A stretch of 39,029 nucleotides of DNA from positions 1 to 39,029 of the IMG/VR virus record IMGVR_UViG_3300042997_001377, one strand, 5' to 3'. The position numbers and the translations under genes are program-made. This DNA comes from a virus. Lineage: Duplodnaviria > Caudoviricetes. The notes beneath the pieces are model-generated. The model searched no databases. It worked only from the letters and a program-made list of their open reading frames with translations, and was not told the DNA's origin. Shown one piece after another: positions 1,025 to 38,324 of this stretch (its first letter is position 1; each line of letters begins with the position of its first letter).

Positions 1025-1126
1025 AAGTTTAAAATTTAGTTGTTTAAAGTATAAATAAGGCACTAAAATAAGTTAGTATTATATTGTGTTGTTTTTATTA
1101 TAATAGCGCCTTAAAAGTTGTTTTTA

Positions 1127-2449: not shown

Positions 2450-2554
2450 TTAGTTAATGATTTTAGTTAATTCGATTATTGAAATAGTTGTTACAACTGT
2501 TAAAAGTATAAATACAAATATACTTTGACCTGGATTTTGTTTTATTGCTTTCAT
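2450..2554 (-). CDS. Small single-TM peptide (34 aa, MKAIKQNPGQSIFVFILLTVV...), first gene after the hammerhead
   Basis: Manual translation; start region AAACTAAAACTAAAAAAAATG. Confidence 0.6.
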   Translation of the reverse strand: MKAIKQNPGQSIFVFILLTVVTTISIIELTKIIN

Positions 2555-2586
2555 TTTTTTTAGTTTTAGTTTTAGTTTATATTTTT

Positions 2587-2637
2587 ACTGTTTCATCATT
2601 TTTGAATCATCAGATAAGGTACGCACCTTATTACAGT
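2587..2637 (-). ncRNA. Type III hammerhead ribozyme
   Basis: Minus strand reads ACUGU-A / AUAAGGU-GCGU-ACCUUAU / CUGAUGA / UUCA-AAAA-UGAU / GAA-ACAGU, giving an intact core, stems I-III and a GUA cleavage triplet. Confidence 0.85.
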
Positions 2638-2768
2638 GTCGTTTAAAATAGATATATAAGCACGTTATATAAGTATTTTAAACCTGAGCCATGCCTTTCG
2701 ACCTGAAACCCGCAAACTAATGTTTTTAAACACGTCCGCCTGATTATTTTACTGCTTTAATTCTGATG

Positions 2769-37929: not shown

Positions 37930-38170
37930 ATTTTTGATTTTTAGTTATTTTTATTGAGTAATGTTTCACACTTTTAAAAAGAAAAAAGAAAAACAAAACA
38001 AGTTTTAGAAGAAAATAAAAAGAAAAAAGAAAAAAGCCCCCCCGAAATTCTTTTATCTTTTTAGATAATTTACACGATCCAATTTATTTACATAAAAAGT
38101 TTACCATTAAATAGCGTTTGGCTTCAGCTAACAAAGAATTTTGCTAACTTGTATTAATTAATAAGAAGTA

Positions 38171-38297
38171 TATATTTGCCATAAAAAAACCCTAATAAGG
38201 CCGGAAAGTTTATTAGGGTAAGCGTTTTTATGGTTTTTAATCAAATTGGCCTACCTTTATCATAAAGGTTTCCGGCCAAAATGATTTTACAAATATA
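38171..38297 (-). promoter_or_regulatory. Promoter with attenuator-like leader (cassette A) and a convergent + strand promoter box
   Basis: TATATTTG on - at 38297-38290 and on + at 38171-38178; terminator stem 38219-38210/38198-38189 plus U-tract. Confidence 0.6.
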
Positions 38298-38324
38298 TAA
38301 ATTTTCTTTTAATACAAACTTTTT

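Follow-up and report, generated by a model that had tools for sequence, protein, structure and literature searches.

On the minus strand of the window, by which we mean the whole stretch of 39,029 nt analysed here, a type III hammerhead ribozyme lies between a structured leader and the first early gene. It is likely that this ribozyme, which resembles that of phage PaP3, cuts the first early transcript between 2632 and 2631 and parts a folded leader of about 131 nt from the mRNA. The sequence, its structure and covariation, and the exclusive exchange of the ribozyme for a tRNA-shaped element in related phages were observed, and it is from these that we infer cleavage, the RNA ends and a stabilising benefit.

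Table 1. Features at the head of the early operon, with their positions in the window
Feature	Position	Strand	Remarks
Possible upstream promoter P1	2877..2909	-	TTTG, 21 nt, TATATTTG; conserved less well in relatives
Likely early promoter P2	2769..2800	-	TTTG (2800-2797), 20-nt spacer, TATTTTTA
Leader RNA A1	2641..2755	-	hairpins 2739-2712, 2711-2686 (GAAA tetraloop) and 2683-2641
GCAGU at the 5' end of A1	2751..2755	-	predicted decoy for the 5' strand of stem III; predicted to close the released leader
Type III hammerhead, U10.1-U11.1 subtype	2587..2637	-	sequence, shuffles, covariation, PaP3 homologue
A-rich translation initiation region without Shine-Dalgarno	2555..2586	-	between ribozyme and first gene
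First early gene, 34 aa, hydrophobic	2450..2554	-	ATG at 2554, 32 nt past 2587
Long hairpin, 10 bp + 4 bp, between early genes	1056..1115	-	12 related loci, compensatory stem changes

Anatomy and genome setting of the hammerhead

The earlier note on this DNA, made from the letters alone, had described a complete type III hammerhead at 2637-2587 on the minus strand, and every coordinate is borne out by the sequence; the core, the stems, the covariation and the loop motifs agree with the class. Stem III, the open helix, pairs 2637-2633 with 2591-2587 (5 bp, including A15.1-U16.1, 2591 with 2633), and the cleavage triplet is GUA, which fits NUH; cutting would take place between 2632 and 2631. Of the two closed stems, stem I (2631-2626 with 2619-2614) has 6 bp, a possible seventh via U1.7, and the loop UGCGUA. 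The core CUGAUGA at 2613-2607 and GAAA at 2594-2591 supply all of C3, U4, G5, A6, N7, G8 and A9 as well as G12, A13 and A14. Stem II, UCA/UGA, has 3 bp and the loop AAAA. The usual G10.1-C11.1 pair is absent, and U10.1 (2606) faces U11.1 (2595). The earlier note had called this U.U a variant, which is confirmed by the accessible text of Perreault 2011 (PMC3088659), the only relevant source found on U10.1/U11.1, where it appears as a natural hammerhead variant; G10.1-C11.1 is therefore not defining for the type III class. The loop-loop contact suggested at the same time also agrees with published classes: loop 1, UGCGUA, fits UN3YN and loop 2, AAAA, fits RNnA, so that both tertiary loop motifs are present as instances of the UNmYN and RNnA contact classes given in the part of PMC2632901 consulted.

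None of 1000 dinucleotide shuffles of the window gave an equally strong match, and a relaxed descriptor matched 1 of 1000. In the window, the relaxed descriptor found one further weak site inside a gene at +20400, which was unscored by the covariance model. The covariance model R1 gave a single match in the window, the only hammerhead found in the genome; this match is circular, as the window belongs to the R1 training set. Folding energy by itself does not set the ribozyme apart (z -1.49; 13 of 200 shuffles fold equally well). The ribozyme sequence is not an assembly artefact, because two runs from lake water contain the stretch, X2 over 2326-2679 with 0 differences and X3 over 2584-2756 with 1 difference; run X1, a possible source of the record, was left out of the count of independent runs. 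No RNA run containing the stretch was listed, which has no bearing on whether it is expressed.

The scan with Rfam Hammerhead_3 that had been proposed as a check produced no match in the window at any threshold tried (E up to 10), and the ribozyme lies below the RF00008 gathering threshold. The same scan of 10 related loci found nothing and missed canonical G-C copies of the hammerhead too, so the negative result reflects the reach of the library. When the region and the ribozyme were compared with cultured phages by blastn, only chance matches were returned, and the exact pattern of the window's own stems matched 0 viral contigs. The element is a type III hammerhead by structural class, of the PaP3-like subtype, and not an RF00008 match by score; its cleavage is predicted.

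The window, which is the complete record of an uncultured lake phage, has a terminal repeat of 127 nt. Rightward from 3035 lie the genes for terminase, portal, protease, capsid and tape measure. Leftward from 2554 there are small ORFs without assigned function and then, across the end repeat, Erf, exonuclease, NinG and replication genes. A Shine-Dalgarno-like word precedes just 2 of the 36 ORFs of at least 90 aa in the genome. The sequence TATTTTTA of P2 has one mismatch to TAnnTTTG, which we take to be the -7 box of Bacteroidota, so that P2 is presumably a promoter of the Bacteroidota form; it lies about 130 nt upstream of the ribozyme, and transcription would start near 2763. The exact TAnnTTTG, with the P2 offset unchanged, recurs in all 12 distinct relatives. 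A sigma-70 promoter scan of the window was at chance (24 vs 28.4). The promoter and the gene order agree with the earlier placement of the ribozyme at the head of the early operon, and the distance of 32 nt to the first early gene also stood, as an ORF of 34 aa opens with ATG at 2554. The host is presumably a member of the Bacteroidota, judging only by the promoter type and the starts free of Shine-Dalgarno words, because the terL search found no relative in GTDB genomes and the best matches among cultured phages reached only 37-46%.

Several other features of the regulatory region were observed. A strongly conserved AT-rich block at 2815-2875 on the minus strand contains a GTT-N10-AAC dyad, which occurs again inside the P2 spacer (2778-2793) and is operator-like. 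At 38170-38320 on the same strand, a second Bacteroidota-type promoter is followed by hairpins with alternative pairings, where GGCCGGAA pairs UUCCGGCC in competition with a terminator-like stem with a U run, in the manner of an attenuator or antiterminator. The long hairpin at 1056-1115 (minus strand) is a candidate further site of processing or termination, and its 5' arm has AAGGCRCUA in common with the 3' end of the tRNA-shaped elements described below.

The U10.1-U11.1 subtype in other genomes

With a pattern in which the core, the two U's and CAGT were fixed and the rest was free, at least 120 viral loci were matched, and about 260 are estimated. The U10.1-U11.1 subtype is common in viral contigs among the matches listed: 60 of the 120 viral loci (40 unique) have a complete type III fold, compared with 1 of 23,200 shuffled flanks. 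An ATG stands 7-37 nt downstream in all 40 unique members and a Shine-Dalgarno-like word follows in 37 of them, therefore most members belong to phages of other host groups. Among the 28 members with enough upstream flank, 11 are without an upstream gene within 300 nt and 17 lie between genes with no long leader. U1.7-G is present in 50/50 subtype matches with a stem I of 17-18 nt.

An alignment of 32 sequences was made from 29 of the 40 unique members (those of identical length, 11 being left out), the window, L015 and L002. All 6 pairs of stem I and all 3 pairs of stem II change on both sides in this alignment, and altogether 10 of the 15 hammerhead pairs do so. Slid controls were 33-47% paired vs 93%, a percentage that is circular because pairing had been the basis for choosing the members.

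In GTDB genomes, 16 of 25 pattern matches are complete, and 13 of those are from Patescibacteria, the taxon being taken from the record title. At seven loci of this set, mostly Patescibacteria (L215, L218, L221, L222, L227, L230 and L236), the U.U hammerhead is followed within about 10 nt by GTTCTTT, a word that we assume to be boxA-like; several loci of the L215-L236 group hold additional hammerhead-like matches. In Sphingobacterium griseoflavum (L233:1388-1552, minus strand), a U.U type III hammerhead stands immediately 5' of a tRNA-like gene that scores 35.7 bits with the Rfam tRNA model and is not called by ARAGORN.

Leader RNAs and the slot before the first gene in related phages

Among 39 terL loci, 13 close ones span the leader, of which 12 are distinct. 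These 12 together with the window and two loci found by the hairpin pattern, L205 and L208, make up the 15 leaders compared here. Judged by many early proteins, L205 is closely related; L208 is distant, having the leader and one early protein (61%) in common with the window. Four of the 10 matches of the GAAA-hairpin pattern were unrelated, apparently coding sequence, and were dropped. The promoter pattern recovered the 13 viral contigs already known, together with 5 contigs from metagenomes, all of them duplicates.

The element in the last position of the leader ends 14-41 nt ahead of the ATG in all 15 cases. It is a type III hammerhead in 7 of the 15 distinct leaders and a tRNA-shaped element in 8, with no leader having both and none having neither. 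The conservation of the core that the earlier note had looked for in related phages thus holds for 7 of the 15 leaders, where the core is intact, but not for the other 8, where the tRNA-shaped element takes its place. In all 7 syntenic hammerheads, the stems are compensated; L002 and L205 have G-C at 10.1-11.1. Leader type and element are not tied to one another: after A1 there is a hammerhead in three cases (the window, L002 and L205) and a tRNA shape in two (L016 and L208). The first gene of the window stands behind a hammerhead in the window and L002 and behind a tRNA shape in L018 and L024, and its second gene comes first in L015 (hammerhead) and L012 (tRNA shape).

The tRNA-shaped element consists of a 7-bp acceptor-like helix stacked on a 5-bp T-stem; 7 of the 8 were found by descriptor, with compensatory changes, and that of L016 is degenerate. 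Compared with the 7-nt reference UUCGANY, the T-loop is the canonical UUCGAUU in L208, an 8-nt NUCGWUUN in six and 6-nt in L016. In L208 the tRNA shape is the MFE fold, with GG in the linker and a terminator-like hairpin upstream. All 8 elements end in RCUA, not RCCA, and lack the anticodon arm and tRNA-model match of a tRNA; neither ARAGORN nor Rfam calls any of them, and they are not filed as tRNA genes. As there is neither a CCA end nor a tRNA-finder call, to speak of an RNase P or RNase Z substrate is to say only what the element works like.

Seven more distant loci (terL 80-82%) have no type III hammerhead at the operon head; 3 of them have a type I hammerhead further in, and 4 are without any in the part examined. 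These type I hammerheads lie between early genes of the distant terL group (L021:6068, L022:1316 and L023:6554, minus strand). L093 and L127 carry mixed arrays of type I and type III hammerheads.

The replacement of the core by a tRNA-shaped element in 8 of the 15 leaders suggests that what is conserved is a cut and not the ribozyme as such. Selection probably acts on the cut, because in relatives the slot is taken by other hammerheads or by the tRNA-shaped element. The leader, the cutter and the first gene vary independently while a cutter-like element is always there, which amounts to a natural experiment and narrows the function to the making of a cut; the relatives also provide ready-made swap constructs. 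It is highly improbable that the ribozyme is a slow or inactive passenger of shuffled intergenic cassettes whose cutting is unselected. The marginal stem II, the misfolding in silico and the absence of the hammerhead from 8 of the 15 leaders would suit a passenger, but all 7 syntenic copies keep an intact core and compensated stems, an X3 contig has yet another compensated stem I ahead of the same gene, and the exclusive exchange for another element speaks for a function that is required.

The slot upstream of the cutter is occupied by four unrelated leader types, A1-A4. In A1 (5 sequences), 10 of the 38 predicted pairs are changed on both sides, and in A4 (6 sequences), 6 of the 28 predicted pairs have compensatory changes. 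Leader A4 is found in L005, L009, L012, L014, L018 and L024, A3 in L011 and L015, and A2 in L001 and L010; A2 and A1 have a GAAA-tetraloop hairpin with a UU bulge in common. The A1-A4 leaders gave no match to an Rfam family. An identity of the leader or alternative modules as twister, pistol, hatchet or c-di-GMP RNA was dropped, there being no Rfam match, as was RAGATH-6, which reached 16 bits against a threshold of 170 in short Rfam scans of L009/L208, at chance level.

The maintenance of A1 by compensatory changes would also be expected if the released leader were the real product, a small early phage RNA serving as decoy, in anti-defence or in host takeover, and the ribozyme only formed its 3' end. 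The locus L208, in which a strong terminator-like hairpin with a U run (z -7.05) comes after A1 as a third way to form the leader end, and the predicted closing of the released leader on itself fit this reading as well. It is nevertheless unlikely, as four unrelated leaders share the slot, the leader RNAs match no family and the 17 of 28 subtype members lying between genes have no long leader.

The L208 terminator, which stands between A1 and gene 1 and so makes read-through necessary, can also be taken as a sign that the leader is an antitermination signal of the put or nut kind, which the ribozyme removes after it has acted or whose cut is gated by the GCAGU decoy. All 6 A4 leaders open with a word that is presumably boxA-like, but the leader of the window has no such word. 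As to gating, the leader context lowers the probability of stem III from about 0.9 to 0.01-0.09, the decoy fold being 3-4 kcal/mol lower in ensemble energy, and in 4 of 6 hammerhead leaders tested the probability is 0.07-0.16; the nearest-neighbour folding behind these values leaves out the core and the tertiary contacts. Pairing of the GCAGU decoy may slow cleavage. However, GCAGU is kept in leaders lacking a hammerhead and has no stem III match in L001 and L010, therefore the decoy may be due to chance, and we consider the antitermination reading quite unlikely. The preferred reading, in which the cut itself is selected, is followed below.

Known systems and the proposed mechanism

The closest counterpart is the PaP3 hammerhead, which is likewise of type III, with GUA, a 6-bp stem I, a hexaloop starting with UG, U10.1-U11.1, a 3-bp stem II and a tetraloop, and which lies directly ahead of orf71, the first gene of the early arm, divergent from terS. 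A subtype model trained without PaP3 finds it with 63.2 bits (E 7.7e-15), and 30 of 51 positions are identical. In the accessible part of PMC3088659 (Fig. S6 legend), PaP3 is listed among core variants active in vitro. Unlike PaP3, the phage of the window belongs to a different host group and has another promoter type, and the 32-nt spacer without Shine-Dalgarno word and the compact three-hairpin leader are its own; a swap with tRNA-shaped elements was not found in the accessible text of that paper. According to the same text (PMC3088659), the early transcript of HF1/HF2 has a 5' end mapping within 3 nt of the hammerhead cut, and its HHphage hammerhead also precedes the first ORF of a polycistronic early transcript, but it has a core insertion, stands 13 nt from the start codon and belongs to an archaeal host. 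With these published precedents for both the variant (PaP3) and the position (HF1/HF2), the ribozyme is unsurprising by itself. The U.U subtype and the position before the first early gene are known already, whereas no published description of the exchange of hammerheads for tRNA-like shapes in phages, or of the four leader RNAs, was found in a search that covered subscription papers poorly.

The clustered hammerheads of prophages have been proposed to process long phage transcripts, and their role is called open in the accessible text of PMC3088659, PMC6765202 and PMC6155905. The window differs in having a single hammerhead, placed between a structured leader and gene 1. Removal of an upstream leader also takes place with the engineered RiboJ, which leaves a fixed, hairpin-capped mRNA end. 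In the T7 early transcript, long hairpins are processed to a fixed, hairpin-capped end by RNase III, a host protein enzyme; both systems are alike to that of the window in the loss of the upstream leader and unlike it, the one being engineered and the other using a host enzyme. The Theta ribozymes of gut phages, as described in the available part of PMC10879173, offer a parallel in that a phage ribozyme is proposed to take the place of a host nuclease in RNA processing; they have an HDV-like fold and trim tRNA 3' trailers, whereas here a hammerhead alternates with a tRNA shape before an mRNA.

Phage LUZ24 (L240, NC_010325) has a type I hammerhead at 2415-2485, after gp5, with C17 at 2480. The accessible supplement of PMC10914365 lists an in vivo 3' end, T004, at 2480 as a termination site without type. 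T004 coincides exactly with the cut site of this type I hammerhead, which is another ribozyme in another phage; the word 'ribozyme' was not found in the accessible part of PMC10914365. A ribozyme matching the LUZ24 type I hammerhead occurs in PaP3 after orf67. LUZ24 has no type III hammerhead before gp1. At L240:914-998 a long hairpin precedes gp1, followed by a 3' end, T001, mapped at 998 in the same supplement, common to transcripts from five promoters and located 21 nt before the start codon; there, no hammerhead is involved in parting the leader from gene 1.

In the window, the host RNA polymerase would start near 2763, the three-hairpin leader would fold, and the ribozyme would form with a U(loop 1)-A(loop 2) contact and cleave co- or post-transcriptionally. 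The predicted start and cut give a leader of about 131 nt and a 5' UTR of 77 nt. The released leader and the 5'-OH mRNA end that the earlier note had expected are consequences of hammerhead chemistry, provided that the ribozyme cuts. The mRNA would have a 5'-OH and carry the stem I hairpin at its start, which lies 77 nt upstream of the ATG, and this fixed end would be expected to resist decay dependent on a 5'-monophosphate, independently of the leader upstream. A 5'-OH end stabilises RNA in E. coli, from which this host group may differ. The leader would leave with a 2',3'-cyclic phosphate, its 3' end being predicted to pair with the GCAGU at its own 5' end, so that religation would be less favourable. 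In relatives, the tRNA-shaped element would be cut by host RNase P or RNase Z. As counterpoints, the 3-bp stem II over U.U has in silico a rival pairing in which U4-G5-A6 are captured (0.35-0.41 at 37 C, isolated motif), and GCAGU outcompetes stem III in nearest-neighbour folding.

It is very unlikely that the cut destabilises the early mRNA instead, handing a 5'-OH product to RNase J and timing the shut-off of early genes. Timed decay has a precedent in glmS (PMC6765202, in its accessible text), and early genes would need only brief expression. Nevertheless, a type III cut leaves the mRNA with a 5' hairpin, and the ribozyme is replaced by a tRNA-shaped element though the latter gives a different 5' end chemistry.

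Beyond the stabilising cut, a broader proposal, to which we would give slightly less than an even chance, is that the start of the early operon consists of two freely recombining RNA modules, a leader of one of at least four undescribed types and, as the cutter, either a hammerhead or a mini-tRNA acting as decoy for host RNase P/Z; the first RNA would in this way be split into a stable, functional small RNA and an insulated mRNA. Rfam misses the U.U subtype, so phage hammerheads are undercounted by standard annotation, and the LUZ24 match, within the accessible data, suggests that in vivo hammerhead cuts are already present in existing phage transcriptomes, unrecognised and listed as terminators. 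The role of phage hammerheads is stated to be open in the accessible text of the reviews PMC6765202 and PMC6155905. If the two-module proposal is true, a ribozyme and a substrate of a host nuclease would be natural equivalents, and phage hammerheads would gain a defined role.
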